From IMG/VR virus record IMGVR_UViG_2874968258_000008: DNA of 38,535 bases. One strand, written 5' to 3'. The notes beneath the pieces are model-generated. The model had not been told where the DNA came from, searched no databases, and saw only the letters and a list, made by a program, of their open reading frames with translations. Numbering within the stretch: position 1 is the first letter of the stretch; each line of letters opens with the position of its first letter. The DNA comes from a virus. Taxonomy: Duplodnaviria > Heunggongvirae > Uroviricota > Caudoviricetes. The translations under genes were made by a program, and so were the position numbers. This document shows, piece after piece, positions 836 through 38,535 of the stretch.

Positions 836-2338
836 TCATGTTTTGATTTGTGCGCTAATAGAACTTTTCTGTCTTTTCTTCTGCTCTTGAATGTATGTCT
901 GCACCATTTCTGTTATGGTTGAAAATGCACTATGTTCTTCTATAGTTATTTTTAATTTAAATGTTTTAATGACCGGATTGGTAAGGTTATTTGCATCAAC
1001 TCTCACCTCAATTGCACCATTCACTTTCTTTGGTTTGTTGGCTGTATATACGAACAACGGGAATATTTCTTCTTTGACTTGATGACGCCACTCTTCGCAT
1101 TCCAGCGATACAACTTGAACTGGCTCATTTCTCTTTTCTTTATAATAAAAATCGTTTTTATCCCTTTCTGTTGGAGTAAGAGATAACAAAGGACCAATTT
1201 CTTTTGAAATTATACTGGATAGCGGTGTTTCCAAAGCTCCCCCAGCGTAAGGCATTCTTTCTGTTACGCCACATACACTACGCCATTTTCCTTTGGGGGC
1301 GGTAGGGGCTGAAGGTAGGTCAATCCTTTTGCTTTCAGTCAGCTCTTCCATTATCTCCCAATTAAATCCACACAGACGAAAATCTCCTTTTGCTGTAAAT
1401 GTTACCACAGCACGTTCAGCGATAGTATAACCTGTGTTTTGTAATAAAAACGACAGCGGGTAATTTATTGCCTTCGGATTAATATGAGTATGACAGTTTT
1501 TCAGTATTTCTTCACACTGCTTTTTCCAAAGTGGATAATGTTTTTCTTTATAAAGAGAAATATCATCTGCTGATACAGGGAAATACTCCTGTTGACTAAA
1601 TGACTTGATGATTTTTTCTAGTGATTGTGGGGTAGTTTGTTCATTGTCAAAGTTTGTAACCAATGGGAATGCATCCGTTAGTTGACAAAGCAAATTATCA
1701 ACTTCATATTCAGATAAAGCTGTATAATAAGGAAGTACAATATTTAATTGCTCGTCATCGGCTACTTTAATGCTGAAATCGGGCATAGACTGAGTGAATT
1801 GCTTCAGCTTAGCTTCCAGCAATTTAATTTGTTTATCCTTTTCATCTGGCTCAGCAGGAAGCAACCATGAAGAAGGCACTTTATAGCAGATTATATTATG
1901 TTTTATTGCTGAAAAACGTGGACCGCTATCATTGGTAATGATTGCCACCTCCGAATCTGGATCGTCAGCGCAATACCCTGCCGCAATACCAACAAAACGA
2001 TCGTCGGCCTCCTGATAATCCAATTGTTCAGATAACTGTTCACATGGTTTCAGGCTTAGATCCATGGTAAGAAAAACTCGCGGCGAGCGTTCACGAATAA
2101 CAAGAGTCATGTCAGTTGAATCAACTACTTGATTAAATAGGCTAGCAGCCTTCCTTGCTTTTTTGGATAGGCGGGAATTACCTTGCCCTTTCTGGCGGTC
2201 AATCTCTTGCTGAATGGGCCTTGTAATAATGATACATACTTCATCACAAGCAGTAATCTCGGAAAAATTTACCTGCGTCAAGTCCTTGCATTGTAGAAAA
2301 ATGTTTGAGTCTGGGAATAAATACAGCTTTTTGTTCAT
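836..2338 (-). CDS. Cargo protein, 500 aa, N-terminal PIN-like nuclease domain plus about 350 aa of unknown C-terminal region
   Basis: Long ORF in a markedly AT-rich island between D and ogr; N-terminus LYLFPDSNIFL...VCIIITRPIQQEIDR...VAIITNDSGPRF has the spaced acidic residues on predicted strand ends typical of PIN domains; RBS-like GAGG before ATG; no P2 counterpart at this position. Confidence 0.7.
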   Translation of the reverse strand: MNKKLYLFPDSNIFLQCKDLTQVNFSEITACDEVCIIITRPIQQEIDRQKGQGNSRLSKKARKAASLFNQVVDSTDMTLVIRERSPRVFLTMDLSLKPCEQLSEQLDYQEADDRFVGIAAGYCADDPDSEVAIITNDSGPRFSAIKHNIICYKVPSSWLLPAEPDEKDKQIKLLEAKLKQFTQSMPDFSIKVADDEQLNIVLPYYTALSEYEVDNLLCQLTDAFPLVTNFDNEQTTPQSLEKIIKSFSQQEYFPVSADDISLYKEKHYPLWKKQCEEILKNCHTHINPKAINYPLSFLLQNTGYTIAERAVVTFTAKGDFRLCGFNWEIMEELTESKRIDLPSAPTAPKGKWRSVCGVTERMPYAGGALETPLSSIISKEIGPLLSLTPTERDKNDFYYKEKRNEPVQVVSLECEEWRHQVKEEIFPLFVYTANKPKKVNGAIEVRVDANNLTNPVIKTFKLKITIEEHSAFSTITEMVQTYIQEQKKRQKSSISAQIKT

Positions 2339-3673: not shown

Positions 3674-3830
3674 CTGCTCCCTCCCTGTGTGGCATGGTCG
3701 CATGTGCGTGCGGAGGGGGTTACTGCTTTTTGTTGTCGCCGTGGCGGGAGAATGGCGCAGGGGTGAGATTACGCGCGTGGTGGGTGATGATTGTTGCCGA
3801 ATCATTTAACGGATACAAGGGGTTGAAGCT

Positions 3831-5015
3831 ATGAGTGAAACTCGTTTTCATGGTGCCCGTGTTACGGAAAATACCGACCTGGTAACAGCGATTAACGATG
3901 TTGATTCCAGCGTTATCGGTATCGTGGCAACGGCGGATGATGCGGACGCGGAGCTGTTCCCGCTGAACAAGCCCACACTGCTGCCCCGCGTCAATGACGT
4001 GCTGGGAAAATGCGGAACAACGGGGACGCTTTATCGTGCGCTTAAGGCCATCGCAGACCAGGTGAGCACAAAGGTGATCGTCGTTCGCGTGGCTGAACAC
4101 AAAGAAGAAGACGGAAAAACGCAGGATCAACTGGTTATCGGTGGTTCTGAATCTGACGGCAGCTATACGGGGATGTATGCGCTGCTTGTTGCAGAGCAGG
4201 ATGAAAGCATCGGATACCGTCCGCGTATTCTGGCCGCGCCGGAGCTGGACACGGAGGCGGTGACAAAATCCCTGTGCGTGATTGCGGGTAAACTGCGCGC
4301 GTTTGTGTATGCCTCATGTCATGACTGTAACACGATGGCTGAGGCAATTACCTACCGCCAGAAATTCAACGAACGTGAGGTGATGCTCTTATGGCCGGAC
4401 TTCATCGCCTACAACCCGAAAAGTGGCAAAAACGAAACGTTCCCCGCGCCTGCCTATGCGTGCGGCCTTCGTGCGTACATTGACCATGAGCAGGGCTGGC
4501 ACAAATCGCTGTCCAACGTTCCGGTTAAAAATGTGCTGGGGATGTCCAGGCATGTGTTCTGGTCGTTGCAGGCCGAAGACAGTGATGCCAACAGCCTCAA
4601 CAACAAAGAAATCACGACCATTATTCGTCGCAACGGGTTCCGCTTCTGGGGCAACCGCACACCGGAAACGAACGCCTACATCTTTGAGGTGTATACCCGA
4701 ACCGCACAGGTGCTGGCTGATTCAATTGCGGAAGCGCAGTTTGAAACCATCGACAGTCCACTGACGCCTGCGAACGTGAAGGATGTTATCGGTGCCATCA
4801 GGGCAAAACTGGATTCACTGGTTACTGCCGGGAAACTGATTGGGGCGTCGTGCTGGTATGACGTGGTGGATAACGGCACCACGAATTTACGTCAGGGGCG
4901 CGTGCGTATTCGCTACAAATATACGCCTGTTCCCCCGCTGGAAGACATGGAGCTTTACCAGTCGTTTACTGATGAATTCTTTGGTCCCGCATTTGCGGTG
5001 CTGGGAGGTGCCTGA
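3831..5015 (+). CDS. FI: Tail sheath protein gpFI
   Basis: 394-aa ORF; conserved DADAE.FPLNKP and GTLY.AL.AIADQ motifs of P2 FI. Confidence 0.9.
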   Translation: MSETRFHGARVTENTDLVTAINDVDSSVIGIVATADDADAELFPLNKPTLLPRVNDVLGKCGTTGTLYRALKAIADQVSTKVIVVRVAEHKEEDGKTQDQLVIGGSESDGSYTGMYALLVAEQDESIGYRPRILAAPELDTEAVTKSLCVIAGKLRAFVYASCHDCNTMAEAITYRQKFNEREVMLLWPDFIAYNPKSGKNETFPAPAYACGLRAYIDHEQGWHKSLSNVPVKNVLGMSRHVFWSLQAEDSDANSLNNKEITTIIRRNGFRFWGNRTPETNAYIFEVYTRTAQVLADSIAEAQFETIDSPLTPANVKDVIGAIRAKLDSLVTAGKLIGASCWYDVVDNGTTNLRQGRVRIRYKYTPVPPLEDMELYQSFTDEFFGPAFAVLGGA

Positions 5016-9414: not shown

Positions 9415-9452
9415 AAAAACCGCTAATGGTCAGATTAGCGGTTATTTTGTTT
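9415..9452. terminator. Bidirectional rho-independent terminator between convergent U and invertase genes
   Basis: Hairpin ACCGCTAAT-GGTCAG-ATTAGCGGT flanked by A-run upstream and TATTTTGTTT downstream, so it carries a U-tract on either strand. Confidence 0.5.
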
Positions 9453-10029
9453 CCTGACTCTTCTCTATTGTTCCGATTGATTCTCCTGCGGGGTGGTAAC
9501 GATAAATCGTCGATATACCAATGCCGTAAATTATTGCCAGTTGTTTTCTGTCGTGCCCGTTTTTGATCAGCCTTGCTATTTGCTCATGCTGTTCTTTTGT
9601 CAGCTTCGGTCGACGTCCGCCTGTGCGCCCCCGTGCGCGTGCTGCCGCCAGTCCGGCCAGTGTACGTTCAACAATTAATTCACGTTCCATTTCAGCCAGG
9701 GCACCCATCACGTGGAAGAAAAAACGCCCCATTGGAGAAGATGTATCTATGCTGTCGGTCAGACTGCGAAAATTAATTCCTCGCTCCCGTAGTTCCCCGA
9801 CGAGAGAAATCAGATGTTTCATGCTTCGCCCGAGGCGATCCAGTTTCCAGACAACCAGCGTGTCACCTTTTTGAAGGCGCTTTAAAGCGCGTTTTAATCC
9901 CGGTCGGTCTGTCTTTGTCCCGCTTAATTTATCTTCAAATATTTGTTCACATCCTGCACAAACAAGAGCGTTTCGTTGCAGGTCTGTATTCTGGTCATTT
10001 GTTGATACCCTTACATAGCCAATCAGCAC
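9442..10029 (-). CDS. Serine-recombinase DNA invertase (Gin/Pin/Cin/Hin family)
   Basis: Translation LIGYVRVSTNDQNTDLQRNAL...GDTLVVWKLDRLGRS...GRRPKLT is near-identical to Mu Gin / e14 Pin; GTG start at 10029 with GGGAG RBS preferred over the upstream ATG at 10047 used by the ORF track. Confidence 0.85.
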   Translation of the reverse strand: MLIGYVRVSTNDQNTDLQRNALVCAGCEQIFEDKLSGTKTDRPGLKRALKRLQKGDTLVVWKLDRLGRSMKHLISLVGELRERGINFRSLTDSIDTSSPMGRFFFHVMGALAEMERELIVERTLAGLAAARARGRTGGRRPKLTKEQHEQIARLIKNGHDRKQLAIIYGIGISTIYRYHPAGESIGTIEKSQETK

Positions 10030-10083
10030 GCTGAATCTCCCGTCCAAAAGCGCAAATCATGTCATGCAGGCCGGAAACGGCCA

Positions 10084-10094
10084 TTATCTAAAAC
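10084..10094. repeat. Outer part of the left inversion crossover site (gix-like), separated from the rest by the IS insertion
   Basis: TTATCTAAAAC immediately left of IS copy A; joined to 11362..11376 (minus one copy of the 3-bp duplication) it reconstitutes TTATCTAAAACCTCGGTTTACAGGAA, the inverted partner of the site at 15693..15718. Confidence 0.55.
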
Positions 10095-10158
10095 TGAGGT
10101 AGCCTGAGTTTAACGGACACTCCTTCCTGAAATAGAATGGCATCAGAAGGAGCTAATA

Positions 10159-10461
10159 ATGAGCAGAAAAACCCAACGTTACTCTAAAGAGTTCAAAGCC
10201 GAAGCTGTCAGAACGGTTCTTGAAAATCAACTTTCGATCAGTGAAGGCGCTTCCCGATTATCTCTTCCTGAAGGCACTTTAGGACAATGGGTTACCGCCG
10301 CCAGAAAAGGGCTCGGTACTCCTGGTTCCCGCACGGTGGCTGAACTGGAATCTGAAATTCTGCAACTGCGTAAGGCGTTAAATGAAGCTCGCCTTGAGCG
10401 AGATATATTAAAAAAAGCAACAGCGTATTTTGCACAGGAGTCGCTGAAAAATACGCGTTAA
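10159..10461 (+). CDS. IS3-family transposase OrfA (HTH)
   Basis: 100-aa ORF; slippery A_AAA_AAG at 10418-10425 near its 3' end. Confidence 0.85.
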   Translation: MSRKTQRYSKEFKAEAVRTVLENQLSISEGASRLSLPEGTLGQWVTAARKGLGTPGSRTVAELESEILQLRKALNEARLERDILKKATAYFAQESLKNTR

Positions 10462-10496
10462 TCGAACAATGGCGACAACAATTTCCCATTGAAGCG

Positions 10497-11315
10497 ATGT
10501 GTCAGGTATTTGGTGTATCCAGGAGCGGTTATTACAACTGGGTACAGCATGAACCCTCAGACAGAAAACAAAGTGATGAGCGGCTAAAACTGGAGATTAA
10601 GGTGGCACATATCCGCACTCGCGAAACATATGGAACCCGGCGGCTCCAGACGGAGCTGGCAGAGAATGGCATCATCGTTGGTCGTGACCGACTGGCACGT
10701 CTTCGTAAGGAGCTAAGGCTACGCTGTAAGCAGAAACGCAAGTTCAGAGCGACTACGAACTCGAACCACAATCTGCCAGTTGCGCCAAATCTGCTGAACC
10801 AGACGTTCGCTCCTACAGCACCAAATCAGGTCTGGGTGGCGGACCTGACGTATGTTGCCACACAGGAGGGATGGTTGTACCTCGCTGGCATCAAAGATGT
10901 TTATACGTGCGAAATTGTCGGCTACGCCATGGGAGAGCGCATGACAAAAGAGCTGACAGGTAAAGCCCTGTTTATGGCGCTCAGGAGCCAGCGCCCACCT
11001 GCCGGGCTAATCCACCACTCTGATCGAGGTTCACAGTACTGCGCATACGATTACCGGGTCATACAGGAGCAGTTTGGTCTGAAAACATCAATGTCGCGTA
11101 AAGGTAACTGTTACGACAACGCTCCGATGGAAAGCTTCTGGGGAACGCTGAAAAATGAGAGCCTGAGCCACTATCGTTTTAATAACCGGGATGAAGCCAT
11201 CTCAGTAATACGGGAATACATTGAGATTTTCTACAATCGTCAGCGTCGTCACTCTCGTCTGGGGAATATCTCCCCGGCAGCCTTCAGGGAAAAATATCAT
11301 CAGATGGCTGCTTAA
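10497..11315 (+). CDS. IS3-family transposase OrfB (DDE integrase domain), expressed as OrfAB by -1 frameshift
   Basis: 272-aa ORF in the -1 frame relative to orfA; DDE region HHSDRGSQY...CYDNAPMESFWGTLK. Confidence 0.85.
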   Translation: MCQVFGVSRSGYYNWVQHEPSDRKQSDERLKLEIKVAHIRTRETYGTRRLQTELAENGIIVGRDRLARLRKELRLRCKQKRKFRATTNSNHNLPVAPNLLNQTFAPTAPNQVWVADLTYVATQEGWLYLAGIKDVYTCEIVGYAMGERMTKELTGKALFMALRSQRPPAGLIHHSDRGSQYCAYDYRVIQEQFGLKTSMSRKGNCYDNAPMESFWGTLKNESLSHYRFNNRDEAISVIREYIEIFYNRQRRHSRLGNISPAAFREKYHQMAA

Positions 11316-11358
11316 AAAAAGAACAAATGGTAGTGTCCGCTATTGCCAGTACACCTCA

Positions 11359-11376
11359 AACCTCGGTTTACAGGAA
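11359..11376. repeat. Inner part of the left inversion crossover site (gix-like) including the AAC target duplication
   Basis: AACCTCGGTTTACAGGAA directly right of IS copy A; CCTCGGTTTACAGGAA is the exact inverted copy of TTCCTGTAAACCGAGG in the H gene. Confidence 0.6.
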
Positions 11377-12944: not shown

Positions 12945-13075
12945 TCATTCTGGTTGTTCGGGAAACGTTACTGGCAGGCTGGAGGTGTCTGTGGATTCGA
13001 CCTTCTGCGCATAGAGCATCCACTCGGTTAATTTTTGTTTATTCTCGTCGGAAATAATGCCCAGCCGTAGCTGTG
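12945..13075 (-). pseudogene. G: 3' fragment of tail fibre assembly gene G, cut off by IS copy B
   Basis: Minus-strand frame continuous with G across the IS (after removing IS plus one GTG duplication) translates QLRLGIISDENKQKLTEWMLYAQKVESTDTSSLPVTFPEQPE then TGA at 12947-12945, a typical Tfa C-terminus. Confidence 0.6.
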
Positions 13076-13118
13076 TGAGGTGTACTGGCAATAGCGGACA
13101 CTACCATTTGTTCTTTTT

Positions 13119-13937
13119 TTAAGCAGCCATCTGATGATATTTTTCCCTGAAGGCTGCCGGGGAGATATTCCCCAGACGAGAGTGACGACGCTGACGATTG
13201 TAGAAAATCTCAATGTATTCCCGTATTACTGAGATGGCTTCATCCCGGTTATTAAAACGATAGTGGCTCAGGCTCTCATTTTTCAGCGTTCCCCAGAAGC
13301 TTTCCATCGGAGCGTTGTCGTAACAGTTACCTTTACGCGACATTGATGTTTTCAGACCAAACTGCTCCTGTATGACCCGGTAATCGTATGCGCAGTACTG
13401 TGAACCTCGATCAGAGTGGTGGATTAGCCCGGCAGGTGGGCGCTGGCTCCTGAGCGCCATAAACAGGGCTTTACCTGTCAGCTCTTTTGTCATGCGCTCT
13501 CCCATGGCGTAGCCGACAATTTCGCACGTATAAACATCTTTGATGCCAGCGAGGTACAACCATCCCTCCTGTGTGGCAACATACGTCAGGTCCGCCACCC
13601 AGACCTGATTTGGTGCTGTAGGAGCGAACGTCTGGTTCAGCAGATTTGGCGCAACTGGCAGATTGTGGTTCGAGTTCGTAGTCGCTCTGAACTTGCGTTT
13701 CTGCTTACAGCGTAGCCTTAGCTCCTTACGAAGACGTGCCAGTCGGTCACGACCAACGATGATGCCATTCTCTGCCAGCTCCGTCTGGAGCCGCCGGGTT
13801 CCATATGTTTCGCGAGTGCGGATATGTGCCACCTTAATCTCCAGTTTTAGCCGCTCATCACTTTGTTTTCTGTCTGAGGGTTCATGCTGTACCCAGTTGT
13901 AATAACCGCTCCTGGATACACCAAATACCTGACACAT
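13119..13937 (-). CDS. IS3-family transposase OrfB (copy B)
   Basis: 272-aa ORF identical in translation to 10497..11315. Confidence 0.85.
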   Translation of the reverse strand: MCQVFGVSRSGYYNWVQHEPSDRKQSDERLKLEIKVAHIRTRETYGTRRLQTELAENGIIVGRDRLARLRKELRLRCKQKRKFRATTNSNHNLPVAPNLLNQTFAPTAPNQVWVADLTYVATQEGWLYLAGIKDVYTCEIVGYAMGERMTKELTGKALFMALRSQRPPAGLIHHSDRGSQYCAYDYRVIQEQFGLKTSMSRKGNCYDNAPMESFWGTLKNESLSHYRFNNRDEAISVIREYIEIFYNRQRRHSRLGNISPAAFREKYHQMAA

Positions 13938-13972
13938 CGCTTCAATGGGAAATTGTTGTCGCCATTGTTCGA

Positions 13973-14275
13973 TTAACGCGTATTTTTCAGCGACTCCTGT
14001 GCAAAATACGCTGTTGCTTTTTTTAATATATCTCGCTCAAGGCGAGCTTCATTTAACGCCTTACGCAGTTGCAGAATTTCAGATTCCAGTTCAGCCACCG
14101 TGCGGGAACCAGGAGTACCGAGCCCTTTTCTGGCGGCGGTAACCCATTGTCCTAAAGTGCCTTCAGGAAGAGATAATCGGGAAGCGCCTTCACTGATCGA
14201 AAGTTGATTTTCAAGAACCGTTCTGACAGCTTCGGCTTTGAACTCTTTAGAGTAACGTTGGGTTTTTCTGCTCAT
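13973..14275 (-). CDS. IS3-family transposase OrfA (copy B)
   Basis: 100-aa ORF identical in translation to 10159..10461. Confidence 0.85.
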   Translation of the reverse strand: MSRKTQRYSKEFKAEAVRTVLENQLSISEGASRLSLPEGTLGQWVTAARKGLGTPGSRTVAELESEILQLRKALNEARLERDILKKATAYFAQESLKNTR

Positions 14276-14331
14276 TATTAGCTCCTTCTGATGCCATTCT
14301 ATTTCAGGAAGGAGTGTCCGTTAAACTCAGG

Positions 14332-14745
14332 CTACCTCAGTGAGTCCCATAGCTGGGTTTTATCCCTGACGAGCTGTAGCAGGCTTTGCTTTTCATTTTC
14401 CGCTTGTTGCCTCTGCTCTTCCCCGGTATAAGTTCGCTTTATCACTACGCCATCTTTGAACATCCATTTACCTGAAATATCAGCCCGGCGATTTGCTGTA
14501 ATATCAGGAACCTCAACGACGCTTGCGCCTTCCGGATTAATTGCTGAAACATCCTTTTCAATACAAATAATAACGCCGTTGTGGTCATAGACCATTTTCA
14601 ACGTATCAGGCTGAAAGTTCTTTTGTTCCTCATACCAGTTTTTCCCATCCTCTGTATAAAGCCATTTGATGTTAAATTGTTTCGTTAGCTGGTATTGCTC
14701 TTTTGTTTCAGGATTACCAGCAGAAATGTTTTTTAAGTGCATCAT
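14332..14745 (-). pseudogene. G: Tail fibre assembly gene G, 5' portion, truncated by IS copy B
   Basis: 137-aa ORF whose last two codons and stop lie in the IS terminus; about 40 aa shorter than paralog G' and missing the conserved C-terminus found at 12945..13075. Confidence 0.7.
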
Positions 14746-28525: not shown

Positions 28526-28711
28526 CTACCACTCGATCGGCACGTAGTCATTAAGTTCCGGAGACCAATTGCACTTTTCACATCTGTGTTTTCCATTCTG
28601 GCAGATACATAAACGATAACGGCCACAATGCGGGCACCCATTTTCACCATTATCATAATCACCGAGCGACCATTCCTGCATAAGCAGCTCTTCTTCATCA
28701 TCATTTAGCAT
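28526..28711 (-). CDS. Small Cys-rich protein (61 aa), putative zinc ribbon, unknown function
   Basis: CPHCGRYRLCICQNGKHRCEKC cysteine pattern; last of three co-directional ORFs. Confidence 0.5.
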   Translation of the reverse strand: MLNDDEEELLMQEWSLGDYDNGENGCPHCGRYRLCICQNGKHRCEKCNWSPELNDYVPIEW

Positions 28712-28725
28712 TAATCCCCCTTGAG

Positions 28726-28965
28726 CTATTTACTCTTCTCGGCCCTCAAAATCATACGAGAACCATCATCCAGCTCCCAATTAATTTCACCGCCTTCTGC
28801 CATGACTAGATGCCAAACGAGTTGAGCGGCCTCGTTGGTTACATCGCGACCGCGATCATTTCCTACGCGGCGTTTTGTTCCGTCTCCTAAGTCACGCATT
28901 TTTGCCAATACGATGGTTTTTGATAGCGGTGAAAAACCAAGCTGTAGTCGTGCTGAATTACTCAC
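28726..28965 (-). CDS. Hypothetical protein (79 aa)
   Basis: ORF whose start overlaps the stop of the upstream 174-aa ORF (ATGA). Confidence 0.5.
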   Translation of the reverse strand: MSNSARLQLGFSPLSKTIVLAKMRDLGDGTKRRVGNDRGRDVTNEAAQLVWHLVMAEGGEINWELDDGSRMILRAEKSK

Positions 28966-29486
28966 TGGCTGCCCCCTTTGTACTGTGTTAACTCTTCCTG
29001 CTCCTGCATCATGCGATTGACCTGAACGCGTGTGCGTCGAACGGCAAAATTAAATTGAAACATGAGCCGGAACATTTCTGATGCTTCCGTGTGAGCATCA
29101 CGGATAGGTGACAGGCGGTACAGTTCTGCCTCCGTAGCTTGTTGAATCAATGACAGATCAAATTGAAGTGCGGGTCTGGTACATTTTGCACATCTGGCAG
29201 CAAGCTCCGGTATTAGTCTCTTAACGAAGGTGTTTTGCACCGCTTTGTTGATTTGTGTCTGCATCCAAATCGCAAATTTCAGCGAACGCATAAGTTTGAT
29301 AGCCTCGGGCAGCGGCAGATAGATCATGCTGGTAGATTTGGGTGGTTGGTGAACCATCTTCACGGATACGCGATTTCGCAGCGTTCGGAAAATCGTGTTC
29401 CCAACAACAGCTTCTACGGATACAGGACAGGGAGCCAGACCAGCCCGCAGTGCTTCTTTCATTAGCATGTATTCGTATTTTTTCAT
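28962..29486 (-). CDS. Hypothetical protein (174 aa)
   Basis: First ORF of a three-gene cluster downstream of parR; lower GC than the phage core. Confidence 0.55.
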   Translation of the reverse strand: MKKYEYMLMKEALRAGLAPCPVSVEAVVGNTIFRTLRNRVSVKMVHQPPKSTSMIYLPLPEAIKLMRSLKFAIWMQTQINKAVQNTFVKRLIPELAARCAKCTRPALQFDLSLIQQATEAELYRLSPIRDAHTEASEMFRLMFQFNFAVRRTRVQVNRMMQEQEELTQYKGGSQ

Positions 29487-29546: not shown

Positions 29547-29858
29547 TCATTCAGGAAATAATGCCCGGATATTCCCTGCTATCTGACTGGTTATCTGTGC
29601 GGTTGGTACTGGCTGTGGCACGGGGCGTTCTGTCCTGGTTTGTGTCACCGATAACGCCTCATCGTCAGCCCATGCAGCCAGTCGGTAAGCCTCTGCTGGA
29701 TTCATTTTCAGAAGTGCCAGCCCGGCCAGAAAAGCCACGCGTTGGCCGCTTTTGCGGGCTTCTGGTGTAAGGCTGCCCAGCCAGGCGCATGCTTCGCTTT
29801 CGTTCTTGACGGCCGCAGGCTTCAGATAGAAACTTATCCGTCTGGTTGGTGTCGTCAT
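29547..29858 (-). CDS. parR: ParR-like centromere-binding adaptor protein
   Basis: 103-aa frame from MTTPTRRISFYLKP (ORF track extends to 29993); alignable from memory to plasmid R1 ParR (IAFKLNPD.., ..AALTAGLALYRQDP.., ..NILRSLFP); starts 4 nt after the parM stop. Confidence 0.65.
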   Translation of the reverse strand: MTTPTRRISFYLKPAAVKNESEACAWLGSLTPEARKSGQRVAFLAGLALLKMNPAEAYRLAAWADDEALSVTQTRTERPVPQPVPTAQITSQIAGNIRALFPE

Positions 29859-29862
29859 TGGT

Positions 29863-30822
29863 TTACTCCTTGTCCATTGCGTACAGCCCATTAACCAGAG
29901 CAAACTGTGGCACCCCGTCCGCGATGAAAGTCGCATTAACTCCGCAGGCTTCGCGGATAGCGGGTGCCACAATCTCCGCCCCTCCACCGACAACCATCAC
30001 CCGCCCGTAACCCGAAAAACCCGCCAGCGCGCGGATCACGCGTTGTTTCAGTGTTTCTTCCTTTTCACGAATAACCGCCATCAGGCTGGCGTAATGCGCG
30101 TCATTGTGGATGTGCTGGCGCAGCCAGGCTTCATCATGGCGATGTTCGATAATGGTATTGGCGATGTGGTGACTGGTGCGCATACCGTTAGTGGCCATCA
30201 CCGACAGTACGGCATCGGCCATCAGAGAAACGCCTACGTGTGGATCGCAAAACACCTGGCTGATACCTGCCAGTTGCCCCTGAACCTTTGCCACATCCAG
30301 CGTGGTTCCGCCCAAATCCACAATCAGCAGGGATTCAAACGGACTCATGTCAGCCAGTGCCTTAAAGCCAGCCGGAATGGATTCAGGCATAACCCGCACG
30401 TTACGGATAGTGAATGCTTCGCCGTTCTGGTACTCCACCGGGCGCATAACGTTCGCTTTTTTGCGGTTGATGTTGGCCATGTCCGGCTGTGCGTTTGTGT
30501 CGAAATACTCGCTCAGTGGCAGGGTGACAACCACATCCACCTCCTGTGGCGTGATGCCTGATTTGACCAGCGCGTGATGAATGGCAATGACATTTACATC
30601 GCTGTACTGGTATTGCGTGTCGGTTGTCTGGACAAAGCGATCGCTGACCGGATCAAAACCATAGCGCACGCCATCAAGCATGTAGTTCGCGGGCTGCATG
30701 CCACCGAACGGCGCAGACCATTCCGACTTGAAGCTGTTCGGGCTGATGGCGTTGCGGCGTTCGCCGTTCTCAGTCCATGCCAGCTTGATGTTGGTGGAGC
30801 CGTCGTCGATACAAATTTTCAT
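29863..30822 (-). CDS. parM: ParM/StbA-family actin-like segregation ATPase
   Basis: 319 aa; actin-fold motifs DDGSTNIK (phosphate 1), IVDLGGTTLDVA (phosphate 2), VVGGGAE (adenosine); extended similarity to R1 ParM along the whole length. Confidence 0.8.
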   Translation of the reverse strand: MKICIDDGSTNIKLAWTENGERRNAISPNSFKSEWSAPFGGMQPANYMLDGVRYGFDPVSDRFVQTTDTQYQYSDVNVIAIHHALVKSGITPQEVDVVVTLPLSEYFDTNAQPDMANINRKKANVMRPVEYQNGEAFTIRNVRVMPESIPAGFKALADMSPFESLLIVDLGGTTLDVAKVQGQLAGISQVFCDPHVGVSLMADAVLSVMATNGMRTSHHIANTIIEHRHDEAWLRQHIHNDAHYASLMAVIREKEETLKQRVIRALAGFSGYGRVMVVGGGAEIVAPAIREACGVNATFIADGVPQFALVNGLYAMDKE

Positions 30823-30853
30823 GTCGCTTTTCCTTATGTTGATTAATTAATCG

Positions 30854-30892
30854 TTTACGGGATTCTGAAATCCCGTTTTTGCCTGTTTTGTG
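30854..30892. repeat. Hairpin-containing direct repeat, copy 1, upstream of parM
   Basis: TTTACGGGATTCTGAAATCCCGTTTTTGCCTGTTTTGTG; near-duplicate of 30927..30965, which encodes the C-terminus of A. Confidence 0.5.
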
Positions 30893-30898
30893 CGCGCT

Positions 30899-33721
30899 TC
30901 ATATATCGCTGCGCGTTTTTTGCTCATTTACGGGATTCGTGAGTCCCGTTTCTGTCTGTTTTTTGTTTCCACTGGTCAGGCCACCCCGCAGCAGGTCTGC
31001 TTTGCGGCGGGCGCGTTCAGTGGTTTCACTGATTCTCTGTGCGTGCTCTGCGTCGCGGATGGCGCGCAGCATGTCAGAAAGCACGGTAACGGGTGTTTTC
31101 ATGGTGTTCTGGTCCTGCTGAAGTGTGGATGCCAGGCGTGCGGCGGCTTCAGGGTCTGATGCCCCCAGCTGTGTCAGATAGCTGGCGACCGGGTTATGGC
31201 GGATCTCCGTGCTGCTTACGCCATGATTACGGCTCAGGCGCTGCCAGAGCTGCGTGATTCGGCTGTCCGGGCGGGTATCCGGTTTGCGTACAATTTCAAA
31301 TCCCTGCGGTGCAATGATGCTGCCGTCAACGTACAGACTGCCGCCCCGTAACAGGTGCTGCATCTGTTGTTCACCGATATGCAGGCCGAGAGATTCAGCA
31401 GACTCCCGCCATTCTTTAGCGAGTAATTCGTGGTTATCAGGCAAAGGCCGCTGCTGTTTGCGGCTCTGTGTCCAGCTCTGCATTTCATCACTGCTGTTTT
31501 TTGCCTGTTTGTCACGAAGCGAACGCATCAGCGCCCGGCGTTCGTGCCGTTTCAGTGAGCGCATCCATTCATCCACATCAACGCCGTCAGGGAGCTGCGG
31601 CCACGGTGCTGGCCGTTCTTCCGGCTGTTCTGTCCCGTTGTTGTCCGTTTCCTGTACACGGGGACAGTTATTGCCACGAGTCCAAGGGGCGGCAGGGCCG
31701 CCCTGAAGGTCAAAACCATTTTCGCGGGCGCTGTCTTCCGCTTCCGGTTTGCGTCTTACCAGCTTCCAGTTATCCGGATGCGTGCACACACGGGAGGATT
31801 CCCCGATGAGTGGTGACCAGATCCCGTAAATCTGTACGCTCTGTTCGCCGTAATCGTTCAGCTCATCGGCGAGGTCGTAGGCGGTGCGAATCAGGTAGTC
31901 TTTGCGTGGAACAAGTACGCCGCCCTGTTTCTCTATGTAGGTGGCAAAACATCCGGCATCAGCGGCGGCAAGAACCGCATCCATTGCGTCATCCTTCAGC
32001 CGTTGCGGGCCTTCCGGGTTGCGTGCCATCTGGCTGGCAAGGCGGCGCAGTTCACGCCATACCTGGCAGGAGGGGATGCCAAAGAACTGGAACTGGCGGA
32101 CCCGGTGAAGGCGCGCCCAGCCGATGGCGCGTTCCACGCTCTCGGCCATTGATTTTCCGGTTTCGTGGTCAACGCGTGGCTTGCCCGTTTTCGGGTCGAT
32201 GCCATCCACGGCGCGGCTGTCCAGGTTTTTCCCGATGTAGGTGGCGATGTAGCTGGTTGGCGTGCCTTTTGAGCCGTCTACATACTCCGCCTTAAAGCGC
32301 GGAGTTATGTCATCGCCCAGCTCGTGACGATCTTCCTGAATGGCAATATCGCGGGTGTGGGACACAATGGTGTCGATTTCTTCCGGATGAGCAAAGACCA
32401 TCATATGCCAGTGCACGGTGCCGTCATGGTGAGGCTCCGCCGTGCGGATGCCATACCAGCGCAGGCCGTCGCGGTTCAGTTTTTTGCGGACCGTCGCAAA
32501 AAACGTGTTAACCAGGTAATCGCTGGAGTCGCGCATTGTGGCCCCGTTCCATTTGGGATTCGGATGACCGTTCTCCGTTGTGGCGTGGTATTTTGACGGG
32601 CAGGTGACAGTCAGAAACACCGCTTTGTCGCCACGGGCTTCGGCCAGAAGTTCCAGCCCCTTCATGGTGGCCATCATTTCTGCCTTACGGTGAACCGGGT
32701 TACTTACTCCCGCGTAATACACCGTCTCGAGATCAATCGTGAACCCGTCTTCATTTTCCAGCATGAAACTTTTCAGGAAATCGCGTGTTTTCTCGCGCTG
32801 TGCGCGAAACTCGCTTAACGCGTCCTGGCTCAGATAGGGCGATGTTTTTCTGGAAACCAGACAGGCGGCGCGAAGTTGTTCTTCTCTCCACTCGCAACGT
32901 AACAGCCACAGTTTGCGTTTCCACCATTCCGCACAGGTCAGGCGAAGGATTGCGCCCGGCAGCAGTTCTGTGTCCGGTTCGTGCCTCCGGTCTTTGTCTG
33001 TTGTCAGTGCGTCATAATGCGGAGGCATGGCGTGTAAGTGTAACGCCATGCGGGCCAGCATCTGATACGCCTTCAGCGTTACATCCATGGTCAGCTCGCC
33101 ATCAGTCGCGCCAAAACCATCGCAGAGTTTTTCGAAGGTGCTGCTGAACATCGCCGCCGTCATGGTGGCCAGCGTCTGTATCTGGTGTTTGTTGAGTTGC
33201 GGCAGGTAAAGCAAATCGTCCAGGCGTTCACGTCCGGCAAGGGAGCGATAACCCGGTGTCAGCCAGTGTCCGTCAGTGCGATCCAGACGTTCGAATATTT
33301 TGCGCAGGGTTCCGCGTGCATAGCGTTCCGCCTGCCAGCTCTTTTTGCCTTTCCGGCGATCGGCTTCCTGTTTTTTGCGCAGGAAGGAGAGGTGGCGAAT
33401 AAGCGGATCGCGCAGATAGGACGGCAGCAGGCGCAGCGAGGCCATGGCTTCATCCACCGCGCCGTGTGCCTGTTTTCTGGCGTCTCCTGCCAGTGTGATG
33501 GTTTTGTCCTGTTTTTCCTGTGCGTCCAGGCTTTTATTAATCAGGTTGCCCAGTGGCGTGGCGGAGAACGCCGCATCAGCCATTTCCTGGCGGCGCTCGT
33601 TCTCTGCCCGGTGGGCATCCAGCCAGGAGGAAAGCGCGGATTCAGGAGCGGGGATCCCCGTTCCTTCACGCCCCACTGCGTGGCGCGGTTGTTGCCAGTC
33701 CCTGATGTACTCTGCCGTCAT
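30899..33721 (-). CDS. A: Replication initiation endonuclease gpA (rolling-circle HUH family)
   Basis: 940-aa ORF with HUH metal-binding motif GTVHWHMMVFAHP and downstream Tyr-containing region, as in P2 A. Confidence 0.85.
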   Translation of the reverse strand: MTAEYIRDWQQPRHAVGREGTGIPAPESALSSWLDAHRAENERRQEMADAAFSATPLGNLINKSLDAQEKQDKTITLAGDARKQAHGAVDEAMASLRLLPSYLRDPLIRHLSFLRKKQEADRRKGKKSWQAERYARGTLRKIFERLDRTDGHWLTPGYRSLAGRERLDDLLYLPQLNKHQIQTLATMTAAMFSSTFEKLCDGFGATDGELTMDVTLKAYQMLARMALHLHAMPPHYDALTTDKDRRHEPDTELLPGAILRLTCAEWWKRKLWLLRCEWREEQLRAACLVSRKTSPYLSQDALSEFRAQREKTRDFLKSFMLENEDGFTIDLETVYYAGVSNPVHRKAEMMATMKGLELLAEARGDKAVFLTVTCPSKYHATTENGHPNPKWNGATMRDSSDYLVNTFFATVRKKLNRDGLRWYGIRTAEPHHDGTVHWHMMVFAHPEEIDTIVSHTRDIAIQEDRHELGDDITPRFKAEYVDGSKGTPTSYIATYIGKNLDSRAVDGIDPKTGKPRVDHETGKSMAESVERAIGWARLHRVRQFQFFGIPSCQVWRELRRLASQMARNPEGPQRLKDDAMDAVLAAADAGCFATYIEKQGGVLVPRKDYLIRTAYDLADELNDYGEQSVQIYGIWSPLIGESSRVCTHPDNWKLVRRKPEAEDSARENGFDLQGGPAAPWTRGNNCPRVQETDNNGTEQPEERPAPWPQLPDGVDVDEWMRSLKRHERRALMRSLRDKQAKNSSDEMQSWTQSRKQQRPLPDNHELLAKEWRESAESLGLHIGEQQMQHLLRGGSLYVDGSIIAPQGFEIVRKPDTRPDSRITQLWQRLSRNHGVSSTEIRHNPVASYLTQLGASDPEAAARLASTLQQDQNTMKTPVTVLSDMLRAIRDAEHAQRISETTERARRKADLLRGGLTSGNKKQTETGLTNPVNEQKTRSDI
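30927..30965. repeat. Hairpin-containing direct repeat, copy 2, inside the 3' end of gene A
   Basis: TTTACGGGATTCGTGAGTCCCGTTTCTGTCTGTTTTTTG; encodes ...KKQTETGLTNPVNEQ at the A C-terminus. Confidence 0.5.
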
Positions 33722-37496: not shown

Positions 37497-37997
37497 ATGG
37501 AAATAAAAAAACCTACAAAAAAAGAGTTATATGACTATTTACTATCGAAATATATAGAAGATAAATGCAAAGAAGAAGCTGATGAAATCAATAAGAAGTC
37601 GATGAGTCGTGTCAAAAAACATAAAGAGCGGCTGATGGAGATTACGCCAGAAATCTTCTTCCGTTTCTTGTCTGAGAAGGGGGTCTCCAGTGTCTGCCCT
37701 TCATGTGGATCGTCGCGATTATCTGTTCCAGAAAGTATGGATCTTTGCTGGGATAAAAATAAGAAACCAGAAAATTTTAACAATCTACCCCTGGAGGAAC
37801 AGAGTGAGTTAATTAAAGAGAACATAAAGCATTATGTATCTTATGCTTTTTTGGGTGATGTTAAGAGCATACCTGATATGCGCAAAACTTATTACACGCT
37901 GCATTGCCTGAATTGTGGTTACCTGAGCCTTTATCGTACGTCTGCGGTGCTGAAGTGGTTGGAGAAAGACAAAGCGCAGGATGGTGATAATGGGTAA
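37497..37997 (+). CDS. Hypothetical protein (166 aa) with two CxxC pairs, very AT-rich
   Basis: ORF starting 2 nt after the int stop; CPSC...CLNC cysteine pairs; strongly AT-biased codon usage unlike the phage core. Confidence 0.55.
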   Translation: MEIKKPTKKELYDYLLSKYIEDKCKEEADEINKKSMSRVKKHKERLMEITPEIFFRFLSEKGVSSVCPSCGSSRLSVPESMDLCWDKNKKPENFNNLPLEEQSELIKENIKHYVSYAFLGDVKSIPDMRKTYYTLHCLNCGYLSLYRTSAVLKWLEKDKAQDGDNG

Positions 37998-38097
37998 TGT
38001 AGCAAGAAATCTTTTCGGTAATTCAGCAGGTAGTGTGTCGCATTCTGAGCGTGATGTGCTTTATCATGGTGGCGATGGCGGCAGTAGTGGAGGCGGA

Positions 38098-38535
38098 ATG
38101 TCAGATAAACTTGAAAGGCGAATTGAGCGGCTCGAAGGTGATTTATCGCTAACAAGAAACGACCTTGCGACGCTTGCTGAACGCACTACAAACCTCTCAA
38201 CTAAAGCCGATGTTGGTGAGGTGAAAGGTGAACTCAAAGCAGACATAGCACATCTGAAAGGTGATCTTGAATGCGATATTGCGAATCTGAAAGGTGAGCT
38301 TAAATCTGATACAGCTAACCTGAAAGAGCAGCTCAAATCAGACATTAACAGCCTGAAGGGTGAGCTTACCGAAGCGATGGATAAACGCTTTGACAAGATT
38401 ATGGATGAGATGAATCGGCGGTTTGACAAGGTTGATGATAATACGAAGTGGCGTTGGAGTGGCATTATTGTGCCAGTGTGCACAACCATTTTCACAGCGG
38501 CGGTTGCTGTATTTGTTGCTAAATTTGTTGGCTGA
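38098..38535 (+). CDS. Coiled-coil protein with C-terminal transmembrane anchor (possibly XhlA/DUF1640-like)
   Basis: Frame from ATG 38098 with GGAGG RBS (ORF track opens at 37981); heptad-like repeats KGELKADIAHLKGDLECDIANLKGELKSDTANLKEQLKSD and hydrophobic tail IIVPVCTTIFTAAVAVFVAKFVG. Confidence 0.5.
   Translation: MSDKLERRIERLEGDLSLTRNDLATLAERTTNLSTKADVGEVKGELKADIAHLKGDLECDIANLKGELKSDTANLKEQLKSDINSLKGELTEAMDKRFDKIMDEMNRRFDKVDDNTKWRWSGIIVPVCTTIFTAAVAVFVAKFVG

Follow-up and report, generated by a model that had tools for sequence, protein, structure and literature searches.

A type II (ParMRC-like) partition module with a small candidate centromere in integrating P88-like phages

Why should a phage that integrates carry a partition system? 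Such systems normally mark plasmids and phage-plasmids off from integrating phages, and here one is conserved and strongly constrained in an integrating lineage of the P2 family. The question is raised by a stretch of tailed-phage DNA of 38,535 nt (IMG/VR record IMGVR_UViG_2874968258_000008; hereafter the window), in which the partition genes parM and parR (together parMR) follow replication gene A of a P2-like prophage. We propose that they encode a ParMRC machine which is expressed early and acts on extrachromosomal circles of the phage, positioning or segregating them while infection, induction or abortive excision is under way, and we give this reading a probability of roughly 0.6. The gene pair is already annotated in public records, as gp17/gp18 of Escherichia phage P88 and, in prophage Sp13 of Escherichia coli O157 Sakai (ECs_2634/ECs_2635), as stbA and plasmid partition protein; the Sp13 StbA is 98% identical to the window ParM. 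The P88 paper makes no mention of partition genes. The three genes at issue are as follows.

29863-30822, minus strand: parM, a 319-aa actin-fold ATPase (ParM/StbA), assigned from Pfam, PDB, PHROG 691 and the ratio of nonsynonymous to synonymous substitution rates (dN/dS).
29547-29858, minus strand: parR, a 103-aa centromere-binding adaptor, assigned from Pfam, PHROG 2515 and a family profile matched against PDB.
30899-33721, minus strand: gene A, a 940-aa rolling-circle replication initiator and the immediate upstream neighbour of parM (Pfam Phage_GPA, 7.1e-131).

The initial annotation, made from the DNA letters without database searches, had described a 319-aa ParM with actin-fold motifs that aligns with ParM of plasmid R1, and a 103-aa ParR 4 nt downstream. 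Profile searches bear out both proteins. ParM matches Pfam StbA_N (PF06406; E=2.7e-82, 274.9 bits against a cut-off of 24.6 bits) over model positions 1-157 of 158, and the ParM C-terminal domain PF21523 (E=1.3e-68, 230.5 bits). A phmmer search of PDB gives R1 ParM (1mwk, E=8.5e-93), with residues 2-316 aligned against 2-318. The nucleotide-binding and hydrolysis motifs are intact in this alignment, namely DDGSTNIK (phosphate 1), MPESIPAG (catalytic), DLGGTTLD (phosphate 2) and GGGAE (adenosine), and all four are unchanged across 11 phage-clade ParMs. The parR open reading frame (ORF) begins 4 nt past the parM stop codon (TAA-ACCA-ATG), and its product matches Pfam Plasmid_stab_B (PF10784, the ParR/StbB family; E=2e-23, 82.4 bits against a cut-off of 25 bits) over 71 of 72 model positions. 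The single ParR sequence found no match in PDB, and a profile built from 8 ParR homologues matches ParR/StbB of pB171 (2jd3, E=2.8e-14) over nearly its full length. Both PHROG families named above are 'partition protein' families. An NCBIfam search of ParM and ParR returned nothing above the curated cut-off. Family membership of ParM, its motifs and the adjacent ParR confirm the pair as type II (ParMRC) partition genes.

From the Pfam and 2jd3 profile matches we assign ParR a putative N-terminal ribbon-helix-helix DNA-binding domain, with RRISFYLKP as its N-terminal strand. The C-terminal tail reads NIxxLFPE, and an N(A/I)xxLFP motif stands at the extreme C-terminus in 6/6 phage ParRs compared; homologues in an integrative and conjugative element (ICE) and in an integrated plasmid have N-A-x-x-M-F at the equivalent place. 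In type II systems a conserved unstructured C-terminal tail of ParR binds ParM (PMC5016525), and the phage motif would fit such a tail.

The element that carries these genes is an integrase-bearing P2-like temperate phage of the P88 type, genus Xuanwuvirus. The window holds P2-type genes (gpP-type terminase, portal, gpD, gpU and Phage_GPA), a tyrosine integrase at ~36.4-37.5 kb and a helix-turn-helix (HTH) repressor at 36-37.5 kb. It is collinear with phage P88 (Peduoviridae, Xuanwuvirus), in which the order A, ParM, ParR, cargo, portal is the same, and the segment from cos through parMR to A is 97.3% identical to P88 over 65% of the segment length; the ParM of P88 is 99.7% identical to that of the window. 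The pair sits between replication gene A and portal gene Q. Downstream of parR come three small genes, then the cos region, then the portal and terminase genes on the opposite strand. In an E. coli O26 relative, 99.9% identical, the integrase-side end lies in the chromosome beside btuC.

How widely is this arrangement kept? The initial annotation had framed the pair as an oddity of one prophage, which does not hold: the module is fixed throughout the P88-like genus, occurs in related prophages of other genera, and is unusual among integrating phages generally. parMR DNA at at least 90% identity is present in 1307 of 5426 complete E. coli genomes (~24%), including O157, O26 and ST131. Among 50,697 phage records, a ParM homologue (E<=1e-5) occurs only in 14 P88-like records (at least 95% identity) and in phage-plasmid D6 (48%). 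A search of 5.8 billion proteins added intermediate ParMs from Hafnia, Plesiomonas, Serratia and Enterobacter (54-63% identity), and P2-like prophages with the module are also found in Salmonella, E. albertii and Citrobacter. The IMG/VR scan returned only near-identical E. coli elements; it served for population counts and gave no further lineages. Among these relatives parM is intact in 80/80 and parR is full length in 77/80.

Genomic context divides the homologues by identity. In all the contexts examined at ParM identities of at least 54% (Hafnia, Plesiomonas, Serratia twice, Enterobacter, E. albertii and Salmonella), parM lies in a P2-like prophage, in the interval from gene A to portal Q. 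A is followed, in some cases after one or two small ORFs, by parM and parR, then by a few variable genes, in some cases by ogr, and lastly by portal and terminase. Likewise, among GTDB species representatives, loci with ParM of at least 58% (E. albertii, Salmonella and Serratia quinivorans) have gene A upstream, and none of the intact loci with ParM of at most 53% has A or Q nearby. ParM homologues at or below 53% identity lie on plasmids, an ICE or an integrated plasmid; of those examined at 49-50%, one is in an ICE and one in an integrated Rep3 plasmid. Across five phage lineages ParM is 52-74% identical, A is 32-54% and, apart from one close pair, Q is 28-47%. The phages that carry the module are old relatives, because A and the portal have diverged across the five lineages, and ParM is the best conserved among the proteins compared. 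Within E. coli, dN/dS is 0.03-0.10 for parM, 0.09-0.13 for gene A and 0.2-0.4 for parR. We take the cassette to be a complete type II (ParMRC-like) module under purifying selection and part of the replication and early block of P88-like and related P2-family phages. A 44-kb Apirhabdus plasmid was considered as a close relative (62% in the best segment) and rejected; it is an ordinary Rep3/ParA plasmid with a frameshifted parM and no phage.

A rival view sees the module as plasmid cargo (a moron) that was captured recently and plays no part in the life cycle of the phage. It draws on the overwhelmingly plasmid-borne nature of the ParM family, which is found in >5000 plasmid records, and on the position of the module beside a hotspot of variable genes.

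28526-29486, minus strand: variable cargo between parR and cos/portal, separate from the par module, assigned from family scans and homology to relatives.

The cargo proteins are of 174 aa (no family), 79 aa (DUF7446) and 61 aa (CxxC-rich). Phages from beyond the P88 group, a Lambdavirus record among them, share the DUF7446 gene at the DNA level (80-91%). The same spot in relatives holds HicAB, a KAP NTPase, a YafO toxin or DUF4760. However, homology to relatives ends at the parR stop codon and the distance from parR to Q varies from 995 to 4174 nt (61 relatives); the hotspot thus begins past parR and the par module lies outside it. Six of the best 5000 plasmid records carry P88-like DNA itself. 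All the others fall below 60% ParM identity, and among the matches listed the non-P88 plasmid ParMs reach at most ~52%. The five phage lineages, though deeply diverged, keep the synteny; parM is constrained more strongly than gene A; and even the heavily degraded Sp13 retains the module. Capture as cargo, one of two options offered by the initial annotation, is therefore unsupported as a recent event, given the plasmid ceiling, the constraint on parM and the start of the cargo past parR, and we regard it as effectively refuted.

If the module is not a passenger, on what DNA would it act? In the complete E. coli genomes parMR was located at 1455 places, 1453 of them in the chromosome and 2 on plasmids. 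Sakai Sp13 (NC_002695.2 2593039-2614158) has lost its head, packaging and lysis genes to decay mediated by insertion sequences (IS); int, the repressor switch and gene A are still there, as is an intact parMR. The prophage excises spontaneously into circles that are detectable in uninduced O157 cells, and mitomycin C raises the circles ~30-fold, amplifies the DNA and increases early transcripts (PMC2669165). Sp13 has been reported as excising, replicating and even being packaged (PMC2669165). An extrachromosomal substrate thus exists, because a prophage that bears the module forms circles, and the transient excised, replicating circle is most likely what the ParMRC system would act on.

A more far-reaching alternative is a facultative phage-plasmid, that is, a stable low-copy circle built on a gpA replicon and ParMRC, with integration as no more than one of two forms of lysogeny. 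A complete, intact cassette is what this would call for, and the Sp13 circles in uninduced cells are in keeping with it. So is one 34,461-bp circular 'plasmid' in PLSDB, pZ1323PEC0009-2 (NZ_CP148288.1), which is a whole P88-like genome with integrase. However, over 24.9 kb this record matches at 100% identity a prophage in the chromosome of strain Z1323HEC0067, which belongs to the same project. The chromosome of the strain that the record comes from does not figure among the matches, and the record may represent a genuine episome, a circle that was excised or induced, or a cross-sample artefact. The other 'plasmid' matches are records of megabases or hundreds of kb, or a linear IS-riddled Shigella contig, and give no evidence of an episome. 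The integrase is retained, and among the window proteins scanned the only replication initiator is the P2-type gpA. This gpA is a rolling-circle initiator of the lytic cycle and is not known to be under copy control, which also counts against a stable plasmid. We consider the phage-plasmid unlikely. The initial annotation had also offered a segregating episome, and the chromosomal counts speak against this as the normal state of the element.

A partition system of this type would also need a centromere. In type II systems it consists of repeats upstream of parM, which may be split in two with a promoter between them (PMC5016525). Repeats are found at this position in the window.

30857-30876, no strand: proximal palindrome ACGGGATT-N4-AATCCCGT, candidate ParR site (half of parC), 53 nt upstream of the parM ATG.
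30930-30949, no strand: distal palindrome ACGGGACT-N4-AATCCCGT, candidate ParR site (half of parC), 126 nt upstream of the parM ATG and inside the 3' end of gene A.
30851-30965, no strand: proposed split centromere/operator region that holds both 42-nt direct repeats, from repeat analysis.

The two copies of the 42-nt direct repeat (30851-30892 and 30924-30965) each consist of an A-rich tract and a palindrome ACGGGAnT-N4-AATCCCGT. The 20-nt palindrome pattern has only two perfect matches in the 38.5-kb window, both upstream of parM and 73 bp apart. A spacing of N8 fits the pattern; with N7 there is no match in the window. We did not find a multi-iteron array upstream of parM, only the two repeats with their palindromic cores. 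In E. coli, E. albertii and Salmonella two YGGG-N10-CCCR palindromes are found at -53/-126 (73 bp apart); the corresponding pair is at -56/-129 in Hafnia (73 bp) and at -60/-132 in Plesiomonas (72 bp). The sequence around and between the paired palindromes is not conserved across the E. coli, Hafnia and Plesiomonas lineages, and in Hafnia the gene upstream of the pair is not even A. These three lineages share the ParR N-terminal strand RR(I/V)SFYL. Both palindromes are retained in 55 IMG/VR relatives, and 52 of these have the 73-bp spacing; across six P88-like elements the 30851-30965 region shows 99% conservation. Within the palindromes, variation among 78 E. coli relatives falls mostly in the central 8 nt, and a TCCCG-to-TCCTG change in the proximal site is common. 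The paired palindromes look like a minimal palindromic version of a split type II centromere, and on sequence the module is best described as a phage-borne ParMRC branch with an unusually small candidate centromere.

The position of the pair directly after gene A had suggested possible co-transcription to the initial annotation, and what we found is in agreement. The gap between gene A and parM is 76 nt, and no sense-strand terminator was found in it; the next terminator-like site on the sense strand lies past the cargo genes, at 28476-28461. Promoter scans of four lineages found no consensus sigma-70 promoter upstream of parM in E. coli, Hafnia or Plesiomonas, and in the Serratia locus one weak match, which ends on the parM start codon. 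One further element stands out between the palindromes and the gene.

30839-30847, minus strand: ATTAATCAA box, a possible -10 element or part of an operator, just upstream of the parM Shine-Dalgarno sequence, read from the sequences.

The sequence around this box has diverged, yet the box itself is kept in the E. coli, Hafnia and Plesiomonas lineages; the consensus promoter scans gave no support for it as a promoter element. The simplest reading is that parMR would be transcribed with the early/replication operon, by read-through from gene A.

When gpA drives replication of the P2 type, the products are closed monomeric circles, physically the same sort of object as ParMRC systems move in plasmids. 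We propose the following mechanism. ParR, as a ribbon-helix-helix adaptor, would bind the two 18-20-bp GGG-N10-CCC palindromes 73 bp apart directly upstream of parM, and its tail (N-I/A-x-x-L-F-P) would recruit ATP-ParM filaments, which would push or position the bound DNA. The substrates would be the covalently closed monomeric circles that arise from rolling-circle initiation by gpA, after infection or after excision. Transcribed with gene A, the cassette would act in the extrachromosomal phases; it would spread or position replicating genomes and guard excised or not-yet-integrated copies against loss at division. It would not maintain a permanent plasmid prophage.

Several points weigh against this proposal. 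Our literature search found no functional study of the module and no experiment on it. Co-transcription with gene A is argued from terminator and promoter signals that are absent. The phage-borne ParMs all group together in a neighbour-joining tree and are likely monophyletic, at a bootstrap of 28/50. The candidate parC has only two sites. The parC of R1 comprises ten 11-bp iterons. The centromere of pSK41 is a continuous array of tandem repeats (PMC5016525). In Serratia and Enterobacter, where the ParR strand is RKISFYL, the repeats have a different layout, with 14-20-nt inverted arms 26-28 nt apart. Finally, both palindromes score as intrinsic-terminator-like on the antisense (plus) strand, with a hairpin and a T-rich tail, and the common C-to-T change in the proximal site would keep a G-U pair in the sense RNA.

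The last two properties, together with the concentration of variation in what would be the loop, invite the reading that the paired palindromes work at the level of RNA or transcription, as hairpins, antisense terminators or mRNA processing sites, and that the ParR site is elsewhere or absent. Plesiomonas, however, keeps only GGG/CCC, a stem of 3-4 bp with a 10-nt loop that is too weak for a hairpin. No plus-strand gene ends at the palindromes, and none there is in need of a terminator. What is conserved is the identity of the half-sites, a 13-bp register, the 72-73-bp spacing and the distance to parM, which fits protein binding. The RNA reading is improbable on these grounds, and we continue with the palindromes as candidate ParR sites.

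In E. coli parR exists as two alleles that are 52% identical, with the first 18 residues and the last four (LFPE) identical. Allele 2 is carried by the O157 (Sp13) and ST131-type prophages and makes up 20 of the 77 full-length copies in the IMG/VR relatives. The parR gene lies at 3741-4055 in loci L003 and L004 and at 33402-33716 in L139 (O157 Sakai Sp13). Megablast matches to relatives with the other allele end inside the gene, near window position 29804 (window parR 29547-29804).

Such dimorphism could point to incompatibility or exclusion, in which ParR and parC would titrate or mis-segregate incoming P88-like phages, satellites or plasmids in a defence-like manner. It recalls the incompatibility driven by ParR specificity of Clostridium perfringens plasmids (PMC9426499), and the module abuts the variable locus between parR and Q in which relatives carry HicAB, a KAP NTPase or a YafO toxin. 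However, the two alleles do not differ in the N-terminal strand presumed to read DNA or in the upstream palindromes, and no difference in specificity is obvious. The PADLOC defence models matched neither ParM, ParR nor the three cargo proteins, and the module does not turn over, unlike the adjacent cargo. We give exclusion little credence and return to the movement of phage circles as the preferred role.

Known systems offer both likenesses and differences. R1 ParMRC and R100 StbAB share with the window the order centromere (in the window a candidate), parM, parR, a full-length ParM alignment and a ParR of the same Pfam family that has an N-terminal strand and a conserved C-terminal tail, and R1 parC likewise has its repeats upstream of parM, split into two blocks (PMC5016525). 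In contrast, the window ParM is only about 52% identical to the copies of the R1/StbA family on enterobacterial plasmids, and the window ParR is short (103 aa). R1 and R100 have two sets of direct iterons in place of two palindromes 73 bp apart, and their host replicon is a theta-replicating low-copy plasmid, whereas that of the window is an integrating rolling-circle phage. The window module also differs in having no consensus promoter of its own that we detected. D6, the only other phage record with a ParM homologue, is a 91-kb record in which the protein is annotated 'StbA type plasmid stability protein'. D6 is a P1-like phage-plasmid with plasmid maintenance as its lysogenic state, whereas P88-like phages integrate. 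Sp13 differs from the window in its second parR allele and in its lost head, packaging and lysis genes.

Two systems in chromosomal elements are nearer in circumstance. Prophage CGP3 of Corynebacterium glutamicum (AlpC/AlpA/alpS) also combines an actin-like ATPase with a DNA-binding adaptor in a chromosomally integrated prophage, and the AlpA adaptor binds upstream of its own operon (PMC4446434). AlpAC is induced early and is needed for efficient replication of excised prophage DNA (PMC4446434). Unlike the window protein, AlpC is a distant actin-like protein outside the ParM/StbA family; the gene order and host phylum differ, and the role of the P88-like module is a proposed one. Both gpA and relaxases of the TraI type initiate replication by nicking one strand. 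SrpMRC of the SXT/R391 ICEs is a type II locus in a normally chromosomal element. Once excised, the element exists transiently as a circle that the relaxase TraI replicates from oriT; SrpMRC stabilises this circle and, in R391, lowers its loss (PMC4489591). SrpM and SrpR are, however, only distantly related to R1 ParMR (PMC4489591), and the element is conjugative and no phage. If the P88-like module acts on excised or replicating circles, the principle of CGP3 AlpAC and SXT/R391 SrpMRC would extend to E. coli phages. It would then also become easier to see why defective relatives such as Sp13 have kept int, A and parMR and go on circulating as circles, and the module would provide a natural centromere of very small size for study.

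More tentatively, the cassette might be a true organelle-positioning system of a phage, here a temperate one of Gram-negative hosts. With a minimal centromere of two palindromes it might not merely move the monomeric circles made by gpA but be needed, either for efficient replication and packaging or for a heritable episomal waiting state in which P88-like elements, crippled ones such as Sp13 included, survive excision without lysis. This stronger version is possible, though we hold it doubtful. If true, about a quarter of E. coli strains would carry a conditional phage-plasmid. Phage-plasmid callers that rely on par genes could misclassify P88-like prophages.

Other features of the window lie apart from the module. 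Two IS3-family copies of 1269 bp (10093-11361 and 13073-14341) are in inverted orientation and 100% identical, each with a 100-aa HTH_Tnp_1 ORF and a 272-aa rve ORF. They flank ~1.7 kb of the invertible tail-fibre region, beside a Hin/Gin-type invertase (9442-10047). The tail fibre of this prophage is probably defective; alternatively, the segment bracketed by the IS copies could be mobile as a composite unit. Both ends of the window are low in GC. One (836-2338, minus strand) encodes a 500-aa PIN-domain protein beyond gpD, and the other (37497-38535, plus strand) a 166-aa ORF and a coiled-coil DUF1640-type ORF beyond the integrase. These genes are likely further cargo of the prophage ends; in the O26 relative btuC follows directly after the integrase-side end. 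A P88-like prophage of the E. coli type also appears on a contig labelled 'Vagococcus sp. WN89Y' (NZ_JBQPOM010000071.1), a Gram-positive genus, with a ParM 98% and a portal 100% identical, and is almost certainly assembly contamination or mislabelling.

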